Origin: an uncultured Acidobacteriota bacterium
GTDB taxonomy: Bacteria > Acidobacteriota > Thermoanaerobaculia > UBA5066
Direction of reading: 5' to 3'
NCBI GenBank assembly: GCA_963776915.1
Contig: CAVZPE010000013.1
Coordinates: 82,951-146,950, forward strand
DNA length: 64,000 nucleotides
A program made the position numbers and the translations under genes. Shown here one piece after another: positions 8,288 to 17,409 of this stretch (its first letter is position 1; each line of letters starts with the position of its first letter). Below the pieces are notes generated by a model. It saw nothing but the letters and a program-made list of their open reading frames with translations. It did not search any database and was not told the DNA's origin.

Positions 8288-8364
8288 GGCGGCCCTCCCG
8301 GCGCGCGACGAGCGCGCTCGACCGGAACAACAGCAAGTCCCGCGCCAGGATTCCCGTCTCGTTC

Positions 8365-8393
8365 TTGACGCCCCACCCGCCTCCGCCTACACT
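8365..8393 (+). promoter_or_regulatory. sigma70-like promoter of tRNA-Thr copy 1
   Basis: TTGACG (8365-8370), a 17-nt spacer, then TACACT (8388-8393), 21 nt upstream of the mature tRNA 5' end. Confidence 0.5.
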
Positions 8394-8414
8394 CCCCGTC
8401 CCTTCGGAAAGCGA

Positions 8415-8490
<76 letters not shown>

Positions 8491-8666
8491 GTCTTTCTTG
8501 AGAAAACCCCCTCAATTCCCTACGTATAGGCGAAAGACAGCGCCGCAAGCGTTGAACCGCTGTGCGCCCCGGTTTCTCGCCGGTCGGGCAAGGAGCGGGC
8601 AAGGCAATGGCGAAGGCCAGGAAGCTCCTCGAAACCAATCACATCGAGCAGGCTCCGGCGAGCTGG

Positions 8667-8680
8667 CGAAGTAGCTCAGT
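8667..8680 (+). repeat. 14-nt fragment identical to the 5' part of tRNA-Thr (CGAAGTAGCTCAGT)
   Basis: Exact match to 8418-8431 and 15108-15121, located 177 nt downstream of tRNA copy 1 at the left edge of the insert. It may be a relic of a recombination junction or a chance match. Confidence 0.4.
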
Positions 8681-8789
8681 GCGCCCCTATCTCTAAGACG
8701 CTGCGTCCTCTTCCAGAACGTCCTCTTCCAGCCCCCGGCTCCCCGATCCCCGAAGTCGGGGTGCCCCGGGTCGCCCCGCCTCGCAAACG

Positions 8790-10283
8790 CTAGAAGCTAT
8801 ATCCCAGCTGCACGACCCATGCACCGAGGCCGCCACGTTTCGTGGTTCCGGGTTGACCGACTTGACCGTCGTCCGTGGGCACCGTGGCGAGCATGACGGC
8901 GTATCCGCCATTGATGCTCAGGCTACGAAAGTCGGGCCAGGGAAGGTGAATGCTCAGGCCGACGAAACCGCCCGGCTCGGGCGTGATCACCGCGCCGATC
9001 ACCCACCGGAACACTTCTGAAGCTTGGGGTGTCAGAGTTGTCTCGTCGTACCCGCCGAGAAACGGGAGATCGGCATAGGCATTCACCGACGTCATCACCC
9101 CGTTGAGCGGGTCGTCTACGAGGGTGGTTCCGGAGAGCTTCACCGGTTGATTCCAGTTGGGGTGGAAGACGGCACCGGCACCTAGCCCGAACGACCAGTG
9201 TCTGAGCGGACCAAATGTGTATGCAGTCGTGAGCGTCACGTTGGAAGGAGAGCCGCTGCCCGAGTTGCTCGCGAGCAAGGCGCCGTAGCCGTCATAGATA
9301 GCCCTGACGAGGCTCTTGTGCTCGGGGCGCGCAACTAACTTCACCCGGGTGCCCAGCAACGCCTCCATGTCGGCCTTGATCTTCGCGGTGTCGCCGTAGC
9401 CTATGTATGAATCGCAGGCGGAGGGGCCGCCGAGAGAGTTATTGAGGAGGGTGTCCTTCGTTTCGCCGTTGATCTTGTCGAGGAGTGTCCTGTCCTTATC
9501 GGTCAGGGTTGGGATGGCGGTCGCGATTCGTTTCTCCAGATTGTCGTGGACCGTGCAGGGCGTTACCTCGTTGATGGGTGTCTCGAGTGTGTCTTGCGCG
9601 GTCAGCTGCGCCCACTTGAAGGAAGATGGAAGCTTGGCCTTAGTAAGAACGCACGATGCCGCGCCGCGCGTTGGTCCTAACGCTGCAGGCCCTTTAGCGG
9701 CAGCCGGTGCGACGAGCTTTCCAAGTCCGCCGGCGACGGTAGAAAGTGCTTGTGACAGGCCTGCCGCGATGGGGGACGGTGAGGAGGCGGCGGTATATGT
9801 GGAGTGGATGCCGGACGTACTTCCGTGACGAAAGATGTAGACGGTATACAGTGCGTCGTGTCCGATGAGTCGGGTAGTTCCCAGCGCTGGCTTGGGGGAG
9901 TGACCGTAGAGAACGCGCGCGATTGTCCTTGGCGCGTCCTTGTCGTTGACGAAGACGACGGAAAGGCGTTGGACGTCGGCGGGCAGCTTGTCTCTTACAC
10001 GAGGGTTCGTCGCGGATCTGGTGGACCACGTTGCCGAAGGTGGCTTGTAGCTCGTCCCAGCGATTCTGACGATAATCCTCTATGAGCGTGTCGATATTGA
10101 TTCCTGTGCCGAGATCCAGTTTGCATTCTTCGGTTGGCAGGATCGTGATGCCCGCCGCGGCAGGAGTAGCCCCCGCGTCAGCGGCGGCAGTTCTTGAGCC
10201 GGCGCCGGAGAGTGGAAGGGCGAAGAACGTGGCACCGAGGGCCGTGGCAAGGGCGCGGGGTAATCCAGGGCTCCATCCAGCAT
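8790..10283 (-). CDS. secreted hypothetical protein with beta-barrel-like C-terminus (frameshifted near the 5' end)
   Basis: SD (GGAGAGG) plus an ATG at 10283. A signal-like ..LATALGATFFALPLSGAGS.. sits in an adjacent frame. From about 10030 a single open frame runs to 8790 and ends ..GAWVVQLGYSF* (terminal Phe, alternating pattern). No family was recognised. Confidence 0.55.
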
Positions 10284-10336
10284 GTGTTCCTCTCCTTCTT
10301 GGGGTGAGCGCGTGAACTCCTCGGAGCCCGTTCGAG

Positions 10337-10868
10337 CTACCTTCGAAGGACGACGACATCCACCTCCTCGGAGCGTTCTGTTCCGGACGTCGCCTTGTAG
10401 TGCAGCCAGGTCGCCCCTCCGGTGAGAAAGAGAGCAAGGAGAAACTGCCAGCGTGAGCCGGAGTGGCCCCCCGAGAGTGCTGCACGACGGGGAGGGTGCT
10501 GCAGACGGCGTCGAATGCGGAGAGCTTCAGCAGCATGGTCCAGCCGACGAAGGCAAGCGGAGGGATGAAGATGCGGATCCAGTCGAGCTTCTCCCAATTC
10601 CCGAGCCCTCCCGGCCCGCGGCGTACAGGAAGGCACTAGCGGCGATCAGCGCCCAGAACGCGAATCGCAGAACGGGGAACGCGCTGGTCTGCACACCGCC
10701 CGAGCCCGTGGGATCCGTCGTGAACGCGAGAATGGCGCCGTGGGCCGCGAGGATTTCGGCTGGAACGAGAGCGGCAAATATTTCCAGGATCTTCGGGAGG
10801 TCGTCCGAGCCGTTCTTTCTGAATCTGGTCGCGCTGACCCTGGTCGCGAGACCGTAGGCGAAACTCAT
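10337..10868 (-). CDS. hypothetical multi-pass membrane protein (2 apparent frameshifts)
   Basis: MSFAYGLATRV..ILEIFAALVPAEILAAHGAILAF..FAFWALIAASAFLYAAG / WEKLDWIRIFIPPLAFVGWTMLLKLSAF.. / WQFLLALFLTGGATWLHYK..*. The ATG overlaps the upstream gene's stop (ATGA at 10865-10868). Confidence 0.55.
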
Positions 10869-11101
10869 TTCGACCCTCCTGCCACCGCCCGGTGGCGACT
10901 CCCCGAGGTCCCCTGTGGCAGGAGCGCCAGCGCGCGGTCCCGCAGGAAGCGGAGATGCTTGACGGCGTTTTGGAAGCGAGTCTCGGCCTCTGTTTCCTTC
11001 TGTGCGTCGCCGAGGGCCGCCGTATACGCCTGTACGAAGACGTCATATGAATGTGCCAGCTCGGATTCATGCGCACGCTGGATCACGTCCTTGTCGTTCA
11101 T
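10865..11101 (-). CDS. hypothetical 78-aa helical protein
   Basis: GGAGG SD 4 nt before the ATG at 11101. Sequence: MNDKDVIQRAHESELAHSYDVFVQAYTAALGDAQKETEAETRFQNAVKHLRFLRDRALALL... Its stop overlaps the next start. Confidence 0.5.
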   Translation of the reverse strand: MNDKDVIQRAHESELAHSYDVFVQAYTAALGDAQKETEAETRFQNAVKHLRFLRDRALALLPQGTSGSRHRAVAGGSK

Positions 11102-12274
11102 GGAACCTCCTCGGGTGGGGCTCCTCTTGCTCACGAGTCGCTGAAGAATCTCGCGATGGGTCGCGAGGATGCGGTTCACGTCACAGTGAAACGCGGGGAC
11201 GCGGCCTCCGGCGAGGGCAATCGCGGCCGGGCAGACGAGGCACGCAGCGCGGGCGGGACACCGATGGCAGCGTCGATTCCAGCCCTTCCGGTCCGCGGGC
11301 GCGCGAAGGGAGCGCAGGGTCAATGCGCGGCGTTCGCGCCGCAGGAGCGCGTCTGGCAAGTCGGTGTCGAACACTGTCATGCCGCCGAGCGCGGCTGCGA
11401 TCCTCTCGTGCGTCGGGGCGCGGTCTGGAAGCGCGGACGGGATGAAAGCCGAGCACGGTGCGATGCGGCCGTCCACGTCGACGAAGAGCAGCCCGTGGCT
11501 CCCGCAGCCGCACGCGGGTCCACCTCTCTCGGGCGGTGGAGGGTCGTAGGGCCTCAGCGCGCGAAAGGGGATGCTGCCGGACCTTCGAAACTCGGCTGCC
11601 GAAAGACGAGCCACGGCGGTGAGCTGCGTTACCAGCTCCCTCGCCTGCCGTCTGCTCCACCGTGGCGTTCGTAGGGCGGCTGGCGCCATTTCCACCTCAC
11701 GGACACCGCGCGAGAGAAAGTAGCGGAACGAATCGGCCAAGTGAGACACGTTGGCGGGCGTCAGCGTCATCTTCACGGCAAACCGGTCCCGGAAATGCGC
11801 CGGGTGCTCCCGCCGCCAGCGAACCAGAAGTCGATCCAGCGTTTCGAAGCTCTCCGGGCCGCGCCGCTCCTGCGCGGCCTGGATTCCGTCGCAGGAAAGC
11901 GTGACGTGGACGGCCCGACTCACGAGGAGCCGGACCGTCTCGTCGTCGAGCCGGGTTCCGTTCGTCATGATCCGCACGTCGGGCTTCATCCAGGCGGGCG
12001 CCCACTCGCGGATTTGGCCCAGCGCGCGCCGCACGAGGGGTGCGGCGAGAAGAGGCTCGCCTCCGTAGAGTGTGAACACGGGGACTTTGCAGCCTCGACG
12101 AGACCAAACTTCGGACGGCGGCGTCCAGCACGCTGGCAGGCATCGTCCTCGGATTCCCCCGTTTCTGATAGCAGTACTCGCAGCGCAGGTTGCAGCGCGT
12201 CGCGTGAGCATCGCTTCCACGGCCTCGACTCCCGGATCGAGGAGAGCCGCAACGGCCCGAGAGCGGCTCCTCAT
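11102..12274 (-). CDS. radical SAM enzyme with SPASM-like C-terminal Cys clusters (at least 2 apparent frameshifts; 3' end uncertain)
   Basis: CNLRCEYCY (CxxxCxxC), ..VFTLYGGEPLL.., ..VRIMTNGTRL.., then ..ACGCGSHGLLFVDVDGRIAPCS.. and ..CHRCPARAACLVCPA... The ATG at 12274 overlaps the upstream stop (ATGA). Confidence 0.75.
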
Positions 12275-12556
12275 CGGCGTACGGGCTTTCGACCCTTCTT
12301 CTTGCCTCCCGTTTCGATTGTGTCGAGCACGAACACGAAGATCTCCGCGAGCGTTTGATCGTCGGCTTTGTGCTCGTCGCGGCGGCATTTGAAGCCGGGT
12401 TGGGGACCAATGCTCGGCAGCAGATGGGACGGAACCCACGACATTTACCGGGCCGTGAATGTCTTGCAGCCTTTTGATGGCGTCGGCGACACGGGTCGAG
12501 AGCCTCTCGAGATAATCGATCAGCTCCTTTGGGTCCACTCTGATCGTTGTCGGCAT
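12271..12556 (-). CDS. small ORF(s) upstream of the radical SAM gene (one ~95-aa frameshifted protein, or two ORFs joined at TAAATG)
   Basis: AGGAG SD 7 nt before the ATG at 12556: MPTTIRVDPKELIDYLERLSTRVADAIKRLQDIHGPVN... The adjacent frame has an ATG directly after a TAA and reads MSWVPSHLLPSIGPQPGFKCRRDEHKADDQTLAEIFVFVLDTIETGGKKKGRKPVRR*. Confidence 0.45.
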
Positions 12557-12597
12557 GGGAGTTCTCCTTTTGCCGGGTGTCACGTGGGGCCGCGCCG

Positions 12598-14835
12598 CTA
12601 CCGGCTGTCGCGGGCAGCCGTGGTCATCCAGATGTTTCCCTTCAGCTCGGTCGCGTCGGTCGCGACGAGCTGTCCGTCGCGGCTGAGACTGACGGAGCCC
12701 AAGGCGTTCCGGTCGCCGAGCGCGAGGGCCGGGATCAGCGGCTCCGACACAGCCGTCTCGAGGGTGATTCGGCGGAGGTGGAGGGTCGACGTCCCGTAGA
12801 GACCGGTCGCGAGGACCGCCGAGCCGTCGGGCTCGAATGCCATACCCTGTACTCCCGCCCCGCTTAGGACGGCACGCGGTTCGCCACCGGGTCGGGCATC
12901 GACGATCCAGACGTCCGTCCCATGCAGGTAGGCGATTTGCCGCGCGTCCGGAGACCAGGCCGGGAACGCGTCCGTACCGGCGCCCGTCGTTGCCGGCCAC
13001 GGGTCGCCGTCGGGCCGCCCGCCCTTCAGCGCCACCACCCACACGTTCAGATGGCCCGAGCGGTCCGAGACGAACGCGAGCCGCGACATGTCGGGCGCGT
13101 AGGACGGATGCAGGTTGTCCGCTCCGCTTCGAATCAGAGGAAACGCCGCGCCCGAGTCGAGAGGCACCGCCCAGATCTCGCGATGCCCTGATGGTATCGG
13201 CCTGAAGAAGGCGATCGTCCGTCCATCCGGCGAGAAGGCGGGCGTGGCCGCCTCGAAGGCCGTGAGCCGTCGTGGCGGCCCGACGACAAACCGCCCGTCG
13301 CGGACGTCCTGGATCCAGAGGTCCCACGGCCCGAGACGGTTCGACATCCAGACGACGGCGCTTCCGTCCGGGGCGAGTGCGGGGTGGACGTCGTCCTTGC
13401 TCGTGGCGATCCGGCTGATGGATCCCGTCTTGCGGTCGAGGAGGACGATGTCCACGTCGGACACGAAGCTCGCGAATACGAGACGGCGGCTGCCGTGCGA
13501 GAAAGACGGGTGTCTCGCGGTTCCGGTGCCCGAAATCACCTGCTCGGGCGTGCCGCCTCTCGCGGGGACACGCCAGATCGATTGGGCGCCGGAACGCCGG
13601 GACGAGAAGTAGACGTATTCGCCGTCGGGCGAGTAGACGGGCTCCGAGCCGTTGATCCCGTCGCGGGTGAGCCTTTCCGACTTTCCGCCGGCGGAAGGCA
13701 CGGCCCAGATATCCTGAAACGCGGCGTAACAAAGGCGCCTACCATCAGGGGACCAACCGGGGCTCATGTGCTCCCAAGGCCCGTCGTCGTCGCCGGTCAG
13801 GCGGACCGCTCTGGTCGGTTCGGCCATCGGCGCGACCCAGATTCGGTGCAGGCCACTCTCGGTCACACGAGAGAACGCAAGCGAGACTCCGTCCGGCGAG
13901 ACAGCAGGCGTGTCGGCGTTCTCCACGATCAGACTCGTGCTCCCGCCGAGGCGGGACACCTTTCGCACGCTTGACTCAGCGCCCTGTGTCGACACGAACG
14001 CGATCGTTCGTCCGTCCGGGAACCAGGTCGGGTTCCGGTTCTCGCCGCCGTTCGTCAGCCGAAGGGGCTCCCCTCCTTCCGTGTCCACGACCCAGATTTC
14101 CGCCTTCCCCGACGCGTTGGAGCTGTATGCGACGAGCGTCCCGTCCGGAGAGAGCGCCGGCTCGCCGTCCCATCCCGGCGAGCTCGTAATCTGTCGCGGC
14201 GGCCCCCAAGAACCTTCAAGCGACGTAGCGCGTGAGCGCACGGCCCGGCTCGCAAGAACCGCCGCTGCCGACGAGGGCGAGCGCGGCGACGAAGATCGCG
14301 GAGACGACGAGCGCCCTCCGCCGTGGTCGCGCCTCGGCGGGAGCGGACGCTGGCGTGGGCCCCGGAGGCGCGCGCAGGGCCGGTATCGCCGCCGACGACA
14401 GGCTCCGGAGCGAGAGCGCGAGGTCGTGCGCCGTGTCGTAACGGTCCTCCGGCCGTTTTTCGAGACAGCGGAGGACGATCCCGGCAAGTGCGGCGGGGAG
14501 GCCGAGAGTCTCGCACGTCGAGAGGGTCGGGCTCGGAACGGAGGATCGCCGAGAGGATGTCCGCCACGCGTCCCGCTGGAGAACGGACGCTTTCCCGGAG
14601 AGCATCTCGTAGAGGCGCAGCCCAGCGCGAAGATGTCCGTGCGGCCGTCGAGGCGCTGCCCACGAAGCTGCTCGGGCGCCATGTACGAGAGCGTTCCGAC
14701 GACCTCTCCATCCACCGAGATCGCGTCCGGCGAGGGGGACGTCTCGGATCACAACATCCGCGACGACCGTGCTCGACGAGCTTCACCAGCCCGAAGTCGA
14801 GAACTTTCACTCGGCCGTCGGTACGTGATGAAGAT
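12598..14835 (-). pseudogene. Ser/Thr protein kinase - TM - PD40/TolB-like beta-propeller gene, 5'-truncated and with a decayed kinase domain
   Basis: Only the kinase C-lobe is present, starting at ..IFIT.TDGRVKVLDFGL.. and followed by ..GTLSYMAPEQLRGQRLDGRTDIFALG.. and ..LRCLEKRPEDRY... It is spread over three frames with about 6 switches in about 600 nt. The TM segment (ALVVSAIFVAALALVG) and about 530 aa of SPDG-repeat propeller are in one intact frame. Confidence 0.75.
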
Positions 14836-15017
14836 CCTCTTGCCTTGCCGAGCACTCATCCCTAGCCGCTCAGCAGCCGCCACAACCGTCTGCCGCCCGG
14901 CCTTCACCTGCTCGAGCTCCACCAGCCGCGCCCTCTCCCTCAAGCTCAGCCCCACAATCCCCTCCATCCATGCCCCCTCTTCCAAGGGGACATTTCTATC
15001 GAGCTATCGGGGTGACA
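14830..15017 (-). mobile_element. IS remnant: terminal sequence plus N-terminal HTH of a transposase (IS481/ISNCY-like by resemblance)
   Basis: MEGIVGLSLRERARLVELEQVKAGRQTVVAAAERLGMSARQGKR.. (ATG at 14967) resembles transposase N-terminal HTH domains. It is preceded by a TGT-initiated end, TGTCACCCCGATAGCTCGATAGAAATGTCCCC (15017-14986). It breaks off where the kinase sequence begins, and no catalytic domain is present. Confidence 0.5.
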
Positions 15018-15054
15018 CTTTCATGGAGCTACGACACAGATTCCCGTCCCGTTC

Positions 15055-15083
15055 TTGACGCCCCACCCGCCTCCGCCTACACT
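15055..15083 (+). promoter_or_regulatory. sigma70-like promoter of tRNA-Thr copy 2
   Basis: Same TTGACG-17-TACACT arrangement as copy 1. Confidence 0.5.
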
Positions 15084-15104
15084 CCCCGTCCCTTCGGAAA
15101 GCGA

Positions 15105-15158
<54 letters not shown>

Positions 15159-15180
<22 letters not shown>

Positions 15181-16064
15181 GTCTTTTGTTCACCGAACCG
15201 GCGAAAGGTCCCCTCGTAGATCACGGGGCCACCCCGCGCCAGCTCACGGCCTGCCGGCGGGCGGTTGTACTCGGTGAGCGGCCCCGGCGGGTCCTTCTCG
15301 AACCCGACGCGGAGGAGCTCCTCCCTGAGCTCCGCCTCGGTCAGGAAGCACTGAGGTTCACCCGCGAACTGGGTGAACACGAACCGCTCGCCCGGGACGG
15401 GCCGGTCGTCGGGAGCAAGCGTGGCGCGGGAGAACGTGAAGACGAAGAGGCCGGCACCCGGCCGGGCGACGCGCGCCGCTTCGGCGATCGCGCGGCGGAG
15501 CTCGGCGTCCGACCGCGCGAGGTTCCAGATCCCGTGAGCGACGACGATGTCGACGCTCGCGTCGGGCAGCGGCAGTCGGTCCATGGTCGCGCGTGCGATC
15601 GCGACGCGTGCGGCGACACCCTCCGACGCGACCCGCCGGCGCGCCGCCGCGAGCATGGGCCAGGCGATGTCGGTCCCGATCACGGTGGCCCCTTCGGCCG
15701 CAACGGGTGCCGCGTTGCGGGCGGCTCCGCAGCCCACGTCGAGGACGCGCAGCCCCGGCCGGCGGGCAAGCCGGGCGCGGACGAAGGAAAGAAGAACCTG
15801 GTTGGCAGCTGCCGTCGAGAAACCCCGGACGACCCCGGCGTCTTCCCAGCGGCCCACCGCCGCGTCGGCGCCGCGAGGAGGGCGGGACGCGATGTCGGCG
15901 GGGAGCGTGGCTGCGCTGGTTTCCAAGAGCTCTCCCTCGTCCGGCCCGAACCGGGAGATCCCGGGGCCGACGCGACCATCATGCCGCGTCTTCAGGCGGA
16001 CGGGATGACGCCGGTCATACCCGCGCGACCATTTCCTCCCGATGCTGGGAACGGCGATAGACAT
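15159..16064 (-). CDS. class I SAM-dependent methyltransferase
   Basis: ..LRVLDVGCGAARNA.. (motif I) and ..VDIVVAHGIWNL... The start is uncertain (ATG at 16064 or 16109). The stop at 15159 lies 22 nt inside tRNA copy 2. Confidence 0.8.
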
Positions 16065-17409
16065 GGTCACCACGCCGGCGGCTGGCCGCCAACCGTTCTT
16101 CACGTTCATGGTCACCGCCGTCGTCCTCTCCGTCACGCTCGGCGTATCCACGGGCGGCTGGGCGATCTGGCAGATGGCCTTCGCCGCGGGAACGGTCCTG
16201 ACGTCCCACCTCCAGCTCCATGCGCACGTCCAGCTTTTCGGCTTCGCCTTCCTCTTCATCCTGGGCGTCGCATTCCAGACGCTGCCGCGCGATCCTCGCG
16301 ATTCCGCCGGCGCCGCGGCTCGTTCTCGACGCGTCGCTCATTGGCGTCGGCGGGGGTGCGCTCCTTCGTGCGATCGGCCAGCCGCTCGCTCCGTGGGCCG
16401 CGGGCCGGTTCGTGTCGCTCCTCTCGGGCGCCCTCGAGCTCGCGGGAGTCTTCGCGTTCGCGGCCTGGATCCTTCCCGTCCTCGTCTCGCGCGGCACGTC
16501 GCGCGACCCGTTCTCCCTGCACGTTCTCCTCGGGACCGTCTGGGCCGTCCTTGCCGCCGCCCTCTCCGCGGCGCAGGCCCTCTTCCTCGCGGGCCACGCG
16601 GAATCCGTGATTCCGGGCGACCTCGTCGAGCCCTTCTATGCGGTCGCGCTCTACGGCCTCTTTCTCTCGTTTGCGTTCGCCTTCTCCTCACGCATGGTCC
16701 CGTGCATTCCTCGGGCTGCCCGGCCCGACGGCGCGCAGCGCGCGGCCCCTCGCCGCGTTGCAGGCGGCGGGCGTCGTCCTTCTCGCGGCGGCGTGGTTCC
16801 CCTCCCTTTCTGCCGCCTGCGGCCCGCAGCCTCGCGCTGCTCGGCACTCTGTTCGTCGCGGGCGCCGTTCTCCTGTTCCTCGCGGCCTCGCGCCTCCTCG
16901 CCCCGTTCGCCGGGGGTCCGGGCGCGCTCTCCCTGAGGGCACCGTTCGCATTCCTCGGCCTCTTCGCGGCGCTCTCCATCGCGGCCTCCGTGGCGGAGAT
17001 CGGGGGCGACTCCATTCACAAGTTCGTGTGGGACGGCGCGCGGCACGTCTACACGATCGGGTTTCTCACCCTCCTCATCGTCGCGATGAGCCTGCACGTC
17101 GTCCCGGCGCTCACGGGCCGGACGCTCGCGCGGCGGCGCGAGGCGCGCGCGGCCTTCGCGCTCGTCGTCGCCACAGCCGCCGTGCGCGCCTTGCAGATCC
17201 CGGTCGCGCTGGGCTGGGGTGGCCTGCCCCTCTATCGTCTCGTCGGCACGACCGGGATCTTCGCGACGGTCGGGCTCCTGCTCTGGGCCCACGTGCTCTT
17301 CGCGGTCTTCGGACGAGAGGCCCCGAGGTCGGGATTCGTAATCGTGTTCCGGTTCGAGGGGCGCCCACCTAGAATCGGTCTCGAGGTCCACCGGTGCTCG
17401 CGATCCTGA
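16042..17409 (+). CDS. NnrS-like polytopic membrane protein (about 3 apparent frameshifts)
   Basis: ..HLQLHAHVQLFGFAFLFILGVAF.. (HAHxxxFGF as in NnrS, from memory). Further TM segments are read across three frames, ending ..ARHVYTIGFLTLLIVAMSLHVVPAL..LLLWAHVLFAVFG... Confidence 0.55.
   Translation: MLGTAIDMVTTPAAGRQPFFTFMVTAVVLSVTLGVSTGGWAIWQMAFAAGTVLTSHLQLHAHVQLFGFAFLFILGVAFQTLPRDPRDSAGAAARSRRVAHWRRRGCAPSCDRPAARSVGRGPVRVAPLGRPRARGSLRVRGLDPSRPRLARHVARPVLPARSPRDRLGRPCRRPLRGAGPLPRGPRGIRDSGRPRRALLCGRALRPLSLVCVRLLLTHGPVHSSGCPARRRAARGPSPRCRRRASSFSRRRGSPPFLPPAARSLALLGTLFVAGAVLLFLAASRLLAPFAGGPGALSLRAPFAFLGLFAALSIAASVAEIGGDSIHKFVWDGARHVYTIGFLTLLIVAMSLHVVPALTGRTLARRREARAAFALVVATAAVRALQIPVALGWGGLPLYRLVGTTGIFATVGLLLWAHVLFAVFGREAPRSGFVIVFRFEGRPPRIGLEVHRCSRS

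Follow-up and report, generated by a model that had tools for sequence, protein, structure and literature searches.

The window analyzed here is a stretch of 64,000 nucleotides from an uncultured bacterium of the Acidobacteriota (contig CAVZPE010000013.1), and its positions 8790 to 12556 hold a cassette of minus-strand genes built around a radical S-adenosylmethionine (SAM) enzyme. On balance, we favor reading this cassette as a single representative of an accessory module, conserved among Acidobacteriota, that would encode a cysteine-modifying enzyme and whose reading-frame breaks in the window would mostly be assembly errors. The module begins with a transmembrane Hanks-type Ser/Thr kinase displaying a periplasmic PD40 propeller, followed by a cytoplasmic helix-loop-helix protein of ~95 amino acids (aa), a radical SAM/SPASM enzyme, and a small membrane protein. 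In some lineages, the membrane protein is preceded by a helical protein of 78 aa and, in some, followed by an exported one of ~480 aa with GYSF at its end.

In the scheme that we propose, the three-cluster radical SAM/SPASM enzyme would act on the single invariant loop cysteine of the small protein. The likeliest reaction would be the formation of a thioether to a nearby residue, e.g., within the acidic pair that usually follows this cysteine (of ranthionine or QhpC type). The modified small protein may then work together with the kinase as its cytoplasmic partner or substrate or, alternatively, could be exported via the membrane proteins to become a ligand of the propeller.

A kinase, a small protein, and a radical SAM enzyme form a conserved module

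We examined ca. 28 loci that carry the module (L001, L004-L006, L009-L026, L090-L092, L120, L122, and one JGI contig). Wherever upstream sequence is present, the kinase-transmembrane-PD40 gene, a small open reading frame (ORF), and the radical SAM gene follow each other in the same order and on the same strand, usually with a small membrane protein of variable type encoded downstream of the radical SAM gene. The cassette thus shares its order with all these loci and is not confined to the window, which an earlier description made from the letters of this DNA alone (hereafter the sequence-only reading) had considered as a possible outcome. The same reading had treated the kinase as merely adjacent; it does lie beside the cassette, but it is no chance neighbor: of all members of the module it is the most constant, found upstream in all of the ca. 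28 loci. Extra Ser/Thr kinase genes or fragments, some of them in tandem, were seen around the cassette in several loci (L013, 1-3270; L017, 1486-2505 and 13881-14861; L019, 14770-15609; L090, 11920-12288; L091, 356-2404).

Within the class, the module is present in 28 of 301 genomes and 13 of 107 genera, and 5 of the 17 genomes of the window's own genus carry it, sometimes in two copies. The named records are metagenome-assembled genomes of Thermoanaerobaculia, Holophagales, or unclassified Acidobacteriota together with one bin labeled "Acidithiobacillales". No description of the family was found in the literature that we searched.

In the window, gene order was checked by three-frame reading and a frame plot of G+C content at third codon positions, and both agree with the minus-strand order of five genes with ATGA overlaps that the sequence-only reading had laid out. 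As assembled, every gene of the cassette requires frame changes. The genes of the module are the following:

12598..14825, minus strand: remnant of the kinase-transmembrane-PD40 propeller gene, at least three frame changes, spread over three frames
12271..12556, minus strand: ~95-aa small partner protein, a single gene with one frame change that aligns end to end with intact relatives
11098..12274, minus strand: radical SAM/SPASM enzyme of ~390 aa, three frame changes as assembled; Pfam Radical_SAM, 88 homologues
10865..11101, minus strand: 78-aa helical protein, GGAGG and ATG at 11101, stop overlapping the next ATG
10337..10868, minus strand: small membrane protein of ~170 aa, two frame changes, ATG at 10868 overlapping the preceding TGA
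8790..10283, minus strand: exported protein of ~497 aa, two frame changes, signal-peptide-like N-terminus and conserved C-terminal domain

The small gene (12556 to 12271) ends in a TGA that overlaps the ATG of the radical SAM gene at 12274, and the ATG of the exported gene at 10283 is preceded by AAGGAGAGG, with the protein ending in VVQLGYSF at 8793.

The radical SAM enzyme lies outside the curated families

Membership in the radical SAM superfamily is evident from the Pfam profile PF04055 (E = 3e-13, 50.6 bits against a cut-off of 29.5). The cysteines C26, C30, and C33 of the CX3CX2C motif, which in this superfamily binds the SAM-cleaving [4Fe-4S] cluster inside a partial TIM-barrel core, are found in at least 90% of the aligned homologues, and C253-X13-G267-X4-C272, C334-X2-C337-X5-C343-X2-C346, and C362 are invariant in 12 of them. 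Measured against the SPASM pattern that we applied (CX9-15GX4C ... CX2CX5CX3C ... C), with X2 instead of X3 as the last spacing, this is a SPASM-type set of cysteines predicted to hold two auxiliary clusters. The profile match and the invariant motif together bear out the radical SAM enzyme with SPASM-type C-terminal cysteines that had been called by eye. A search with the reconstructed enzyme returned 88 relatives (best E = 3e-202 at 83% identity; nearly all of ~350-450 aa), which by sequence comparison is a homology far beyond chance.

Next to this clear superfamily membership stands the distance to every characterized family. All of the 54-72 NCBIfam matches, including the one to MftC (TIGR03962), fall far below their cut-offs. 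The best of them is PapB (NF047865; 94.6-99.1 bits against 340), with a match that spans the radical SAM core and the first part of the SPASM region, while the anaerobic sulfatase-maturating enzymes (anSME; TIGR03942), QhpD (TIGR03906), and the SCIFF maturases (TIGR03974) reach 44-46 bits against 349, 41-55 against 453, and 43 against 425, respectively. The view that the enzyme belongs to no curated family is therefore sustained, and the anaerobic sulfatase maturase that had been named as a possible home for it scores only 46 bits against the required 349. Among solved structures, the nearest by sequence is CteB (5WGG; E = 1.9e-20, profile positions 16-277), and anSME structures come second (E = 6e-15).

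Three specific identities were considered and rejected. A PapB-family maturase would have to score at least 340 bits beside a precursor with CX3D/E repeats, and the partner protein here has one invariant cysteine and no CX3D repeats. An anaerobic sulfatase maturase is contradicted by a score below 349, by loci devoid of sulfatase genes, and by a small protein devoid of CxPxR. For QhpD, which would have qhpA (encoding a dihaem cytochrome), qhpC, and qhpB nearby, the score remains below 453 and the loci contain no cytochrome gene.

The small protein is the probable substrate

In the small protein of the window, an N-terminal helix is followed by a VPSHL motif, a loop that holds the invariant cysteine (..GFKCRRDEHKADDQ..), a C-terminal helix, and a Lys/Arg tail. 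Its gene aligns end to end with intact genes of 88-102 aa found at the same position in L001, L004, L005, L009, and L010, and the small ORFs of the examined loci encode 80-142 aa overall. Of the two options left by the sequence-only reading, one frameshifted protein of ~95 aa or two separate ORFs, the first stands as a single conserved gene and the second falls with this end-to-end alignment; rather than disappearing on closer inspection, the small ORFs merge into one gene when aligned with their orthologues. Their lack of resemblance to known precursors was likewise upheld by Pfam and NCBIfam, and the protein also had no match in PADLOC or PHROG.

A profile search among 1.84 billion proteins yielded 77 cluster representatives of the small protein. 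All except one are stand-alone proteins of 60-143 aa that were matched over their whole length; the exception, P0166 with 159 aa, results from read-through out of the PD40 tail of the kinase. Besides Met1, the sole invariant residue is one exposed cysteine, present in 71 of 71 full-length members. Further kept positions are two leucines and an Ala-x-x-Trp in the first helix, an (L/I)-E-(V/I)-P motif, and a C-terminal hydrophobic helix that leads into the Lys/Arg tail. Six to 12 residues after the cysteine follows a D/E-D/E pair, the two positions of which are kept in 47 and 49 of the 71 members, respectively.

An AlphaFold2 model of the L009 small protein, made from 19 sequences, places helices at residues 9-31, 43-49, and 67-88 (mean predicted local distance difference test score, pLDDT, of 76; predicted template modeling score, pTM, of 0.60). 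The cysteine loop is its least confident internal, helix-flanked segment (pLDDT 57). A fold search with this model returned nothing below E = 4. In P0162 the cysteine loop is tandemly triplicated (RSQAGCIPPPTRP x3) and in P0107 it is duplicated, an arrangement that may be likened to the repeated modified cores typical of precursors of peptides synthesized by ribosomes and modified post-translationally (RiPPs).

Taken together, these features suggest that it is probably the small protein on which the radical SAM enzyme acts. As for the chemistry, the nearest relatives of the enzyme are thioether formers and an acidic pair usually follows the cysteine, which makes a Cys-Asp/Glu staple of ranthionine or QhpC-like type our tentative first choice, though we would not expect it with confidence. 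Given that the small protein and the enzyme are cytoplasmic, as is the domain of the kinase that phosphorylates, the simplest idea for what comes after is that the modified protein serves as a partner or substrate of the kinase.

Several observations weigh against this reading. The link between enzyme and small protein is circumstantial, being drawn from adjacency and the invariant cysteine, and the acidic pair is missing in about a third of the small-protein members. The Pfam SPASM model gave no match to the enzyme at E <= 0.01, so that the SPASM assignment rests on the motif. With its CX3CX2C motif already at residues ~26-33, the enzyme has no room for, and therefore lacks, an N-terminal RiPP recognition element (RRE). 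Finally, a RiPP system in the strict sense comprises a precursor with leader and core, a modifying enzyme, and functions for leader removal or export; the loci show an enzyme and a candidate precursor with an invariant, sometimes repeated cysteine loop, but no peptidase or ABC exporter was seen in any of them, so that a classic secreted RiPP is improbable. The RiPP or cofactor maturation envisaged by the sequence-only reading consequently holds in part: the enzyme is always paired with a substrate-like small protein, but peptidase and ABC exporter are missing and the kinase belongs to the system.

The small protein could instead be an accessory, i.e., a recognition, chaperone, or regulatory subunit of an enzyme whose target would be the kinase/propeller protein, the GYSF protein, or something unlinked. 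Its length (80-142 aa) and predicted fold (pTM 0.60) would suit such a role, no leader-cleavage motif or protease is in evidence, and stand-alone RRE partners such as PqqD are of similar size. We nonetheless regard this as unlikely: the model is all-helical and not a PqqD-like winged helix, there was no PqqD match, and the exported protein is missing from most loci. Moreover, a loop cysteine as the sole invariant residue, in a loop that is tandemly repeated in some members, would fit a modified site better than a scaffold.

If the small protein is the substrate, its cysteine might still undergo a different reaction, be it oxidation to formylglycine, the chemistry of anaerobic sulfatase maturases, or some other modification without a thioether. 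JGI annotates many members of the enzyme family as AslB-type, the PDB match next to the best is to anSME structures (E = 6e-15), and there is a single target cysteine as in sulfatases. Against these points stand the TIGR03942 scores of 44-46 bits versus 349, a cysteine that is not embedded in a C-x-P-x-R motif in the small protein, the absence of a sulfatase gene from every locus, and the higher scores of the thioether formers PapB and CteB, and we consider such chemistry very unlikely.

The notion that the module is a self-contained peptide-signaling circuit, in which the stapled small protein or a fragment of it would be exported via the membrane protein and, where encoded, the putative outer-membrane GYSF protein and sensed by the PD40 propeller of the kinase, is speculative and in our estimate rather unlikely. 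If true, it would pair a RiPP-like autoinducer with a eukaryote-like receptor kinase in Acidobacteria, a circuit of an undescribed kind.

The 78-aa, membrane, and exported proteins vary between loci

The pair of 78-aa protein and membrane protein recurs in L120, where a 79-aa homologue (56% identity) has an ORF of its own that is coupled by ATGA overlaps to the radical SAM gene on one side and the membrane gene on the other. Through a deletion, the C-terminal half of the 78-aa protein has become fused to the tail of the radical SAM enzyme in L001. The membrane protein of the window shows three to four hydrophobic segments by hydropathy and has homologues of 152 aa in L001 and 167 aa in L120, the former with a weak, sub-threshold match to Phage_holin_2 (E = 0.005).

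The exported GYSF protein belongs to a rare family with five database homologues plus the one in L017. The sequence-only reading had called the protein beta-barrel-like, and an outer-membrane barrel would be marked by a signal peptide, amphipathic beta-strands, and a C-terminal beta-signal with an aromatic last residue. The terminal G-Y-x-F is invariant in seven sequences, and the homologues have hydrophobic N-termini. Profile searches found no match for it in Pfam or the PDB, and an AlphaFold2 model from the seven sequences was unusable (pLDDT 40.8). The gene follows the cassette in the same order as in the window in three independent contigs (the JGI contig, L090, and L091/L092) and lies beside the cassette in L017 and L010; elsewhere it was found only in L093. 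In L004, a different protein of 468 aa with an aromatic end (..LKCFF) and no detectable similarity is encoded at the position of the GYSF protein (9854-11260). Just downstream of the cassette and on the opposite strand, a gene with a Trypco2 domain is present in L005 (3500-4087), L006 (8985-9572), and the JGI contig (11887-12513).

Most reading-frame breaks are probably assembly errors

We mapped the breaks of the cassette against L009, an 86%-identical short-read contig from a relative that carries intact genes. What splits the small gene is an additional G in the GGG run at 12438-12436. The CNLRCEYCY motif of the radical SAM gene is enclosed by two insertions, CG at 12202-12201 and T at 12084, and its frame therefore differs from both the N-terminus and the remainder of the enzyme. 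The sequence-only reading had correctly recognized the gene by this motif but missed that it does not lie in one frame. As assembled, the radical SAM frame continues into the 78-aa ORF without a stop, and we infer a third indel near 11140-11102 because the 79-aa homologue in L120 is a separate, ATGA-coupled gene. The membrane gene is shifted at ~10600 and in the G6 run at 10472-10467, the exported gene at ~10257 and ~10002. Programmed frameshifting at the CX3CX2C motif was considered and rejected, since 12 radical SAM homologues run uninterrupted through it (VEAMLTTRCNLRC...SSRLQSPVFTLYGGEPLL) and essential genes are broken in the same assembly.

To put these breaks in proportion, we compared the window's genome by tblastn with long ORFs taken from 220 kb of G001, a related genome with a protein identity of ~80-95%. 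On contig C15, 40 of 91 conserved genes are split, with 61 frame switches in 116.6 kb (0.52 per kb) and a maximum of five breaks in one gene of 2.2 kb. The genes hit include priA, recJ, and an lptD-like gene. In nucleotide alignments, the breaks in conserved genes are mostly isolated insertions of one nucleotide, some of them outside homopolymers (e.g., gcgTccc). The genome comprises 4.49 Mb in 34 contigs and is 81.6% complete, compared to 88-99% listed for most genomes of the genus; such low completeness in few contigs is the look of indel-ridden long-read bins. We are therefore fairly confident that the breaks in the cassette are for the most part indel errors of an unpolished long-read assembly and not decay, as far as can be judged from these alignments.

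The cassette could also be a truly decaying pseudogene, with real frameshifts that post-date the decapitation of the kinase and no functional protein expressed, and we grant this a minor yet appreciable chance. Some breaks could indeed be real because ~11 of them fall within 5.9 kb (~1.8 per kb, about three times the genome average and well above the 0.52 per kb in conserved genes) and because the kinase is truncated: it lacks residues 1-143 and adjoins a transposase-type helix-turn-helix remnant. Two of the radical SAM indels are not changes of homopolymer length, and the module is dispensable, being absent from 12 of the 17 genomes of the genus. In comparison with L009, the ratio of nonsynonymous to synonymous substitution rates (dN/dS) amounts to 0.38 in the radical SAM gene and 0.57 in the PD40 tail, values that are lowered to a moderate degree only. 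On the other side, priA, recJ, the lptD-like gene, and other essential genes bear the same type of insertion with up to five breaks in 2.2 kb. Besides the frame breaks, the small, radical SAM, membrane, and exported genes contain no in-frame stops or large deletions, and over the ~310 compared codons that lie between its second and third breaks (12079-11150) the radical SAM gene is in frame with L009. For the 78-aa ORF, dN/dS against L120 is 0.35, and values of 0.35-0.57 show that the coding frames have been under selection for most of the time since these sequences diverged.

At roughly one indel per 2 kb, apparent pseudogenes, gene fusions, and overlapping small ORFs in this genome should be met with distrust, and those in the window seem to be largely assembly artefacts.

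The kinase is truncated at the edge of a tRNA-flanked insert

The loss at the start of the kinase is of another nature. A full-length orthologue of ~876 aa comprises a Ser/Thr kinase domain, a transmembrane helix, and the PD40 propeller. In the window, tblastn homology to the L001 kinase begins at residue 144 (TDGRVKVLDFGL, window ~14822) and runs over three frames. The Gly loop, the VAIK lysine, and the HRD loop are missing along with residues 1-143, while the subdomains from DFG onward, the transmembrane helix, and the complete propeller are kept. Residues 320-876 match at 69% identity, and the ORF has profile matches to PD40/TolB and, in part, to Pkinase. Judging from this alignment, the truncation is a structural lesion and not an indel. 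The features at and around this edge are:

14752..14985, minus strand: transposase-type helix-turn-helix remnant, weak HTH_23 match (E = 0.009), abutting the truncated kinase
8349-8496, plus strand: left 148-nt direct repeat with a complete tRNA-Thr(CGT) at 8415-8490
15039-15186, plus strand: right 148-nt direct repeat with a complete tRNA-Thr(CGT) at 15105-15180

No second copy of the helix-turn-helix fragment (14752-15038) was found in the window's genome. Each repeat consists of the full tRNA-Thr(CGT) and 66 nt upstream of it, and the pair brackets an insert of 6.5 kb, all genes of which are on the minus strand. The window has a G+C content of ~70%, the stretch 8497-15038 one of 60-69%. No match to an integrase family was found among the insert ORFs scanned with Pfam and NCBIfam profiles, and no contiguous empty site turned up when 28 genomes of the genus were searched with the joined flanks; what speaks for an island are therefore the repeats and the matching tRNA trailer. 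In relatives, the 10-20 nt after the tRNA match the sequence flanking copy 2 and the upstream side matches the flank of copy 1, as expected for single-crossover insertion of a circle that carried its own tRNA region.

A minus-strand methyltransferase ORF at 15159-16259 extends, as called, into copy 2 of the tRNA-Thr. Other genomes of the genus show homology to this methyltransferase from ~15 nt past the repeat onward, and in them the gene is not located beside tRNA-Thr.

The cassette had been described as island cargo. It does lie between the two tRNA-Thr repeats, and in L009 it abuts tRNA-Thr as well, but it is not specific to the island as relatives carry it at other chromosomal sites. In G001/L001 (4689-9773) and L120 (4175-9241), one of which belongs to the window's genus, it is found between a methyltransferase gene and accA. 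The same site is empty in the window's genome (contig C15, ~110,095-110,300), so that the module changes its chromosomal location among relatives.

Its patchiness (28 of 301 genomes), the insert next to a tRNA, and a G+C content that in most loci compared is lower in the cassette behind the kinase than in the flanks would also be explained by an anti-phage or conflict system in which a sensor kinase and a radical SAM enzyme would be combined with a holin-like membrane effector, for which the weak Phage_holin_2 match of the L001 membrane protein (E = 0.005) could be cited. We consider this extremely unlikely. PADLOC matches reflect generic parts only, namely the kinase domain and the radical SAM core (viperin), with none for the small, membrane, and exported proteins, and there were no PHROG matches; it was this merely generic similarity that led us to downgrade a role in defense. 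Furthermore, several genomes carry the module among housekeeping genes such as accA and recJ.

Comparison with known systems

Radical SAM/SPASM enzymes with small cysteine-bearing partners have been a productive source of new post-translational chemistry. What is unusual here is that neither enzyme nor partner has a curated model and that the partner is a predicted folded protein of ~95 aa with exactly one invariant cysteine. Equally unusual is the invariable link to a receptor-type Ser/Thr kinase, which in the literature searched has not been reported for any characterized radical SAM maturase. Co-expressing just two genes would suffice to look for a new protein modification, in a phylum that biochemistry has hardly touched. 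From its sequence relationships, we regard it as an uncharacterized family of what are probably cysteine-crosslinking protein maturases.

PapB crosslinks cysteine to the side chains of Asp or Glu in PapA. Its curated profile (NF047865) scores best with the enzyme described here, which is similarly short and without an N-terminal RRE and whose putative target cysteine is likewise followed by acidic residues. Unlike the short PapB target peptide with repeated CX3D, the partner here is a helical protein of ~95 aa with one invariant cysteine; the score of 95-99 bits falls short of 340, protease and exporter are absent, and a Ser/Thr kinase is an obligatory neighbor. CteB, a thioether-forming SCIFF maturase (5WGG/5WHY), is the closest solved structure and shares the SPASM arrangement with two auxiliary clusters. 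It differs in its N-terminal RRE and in acting on the SCIFF peptide of ~45 aa with six cysteines, and TIGR03974 gives 43 against 425 bits.

The radical SAM/SPASM enzyme QhpD makes Cys-Asp/Glu thioethers in the small gamma subunit (QhpC) of quinohemoprotein amine dehydrogenase; this subunit is later assembled with a beta-propeller subunit. There, too, the neighbors of the enzyme gene encode a protein substrate of small size (~80-110 aa) and a protein with a beta-propeller, and the modification is internal to a protein with no secreted antibiotic involved. In contrast, the loci studied here have no cytochrome subunit, no cysteine tryptophylquinone context, and no subtilisin-like QhpE, and the propeller is the periplasmic domain of a kinase. 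The anSME (TIGR03942; 4K36-4K39) are the second-best structural relatives and the label used by JGI, and they oxidize a single Cys or Ser in a folded protein; here, the score is 44-46 bits against 349, with neither a sulfatase nor CxPxR.

In Methanococcus voltae, the radical SAM/SPASM enzyme CrpC is described to install ranthionine crosslinks on a protein substrate, CrpA (PMC13692751). As far as that description goes, CrpC/CrpA is a precedent for a SPASM enzyme that modifies a neighboring protein and not a short peptide (PMC13692751). Compared by description only, the archaeal pair differs from the module of the window in that CrpA is Cys-rich, CrpC has an RRE, and no kinase is part of the system (PMC13692751).

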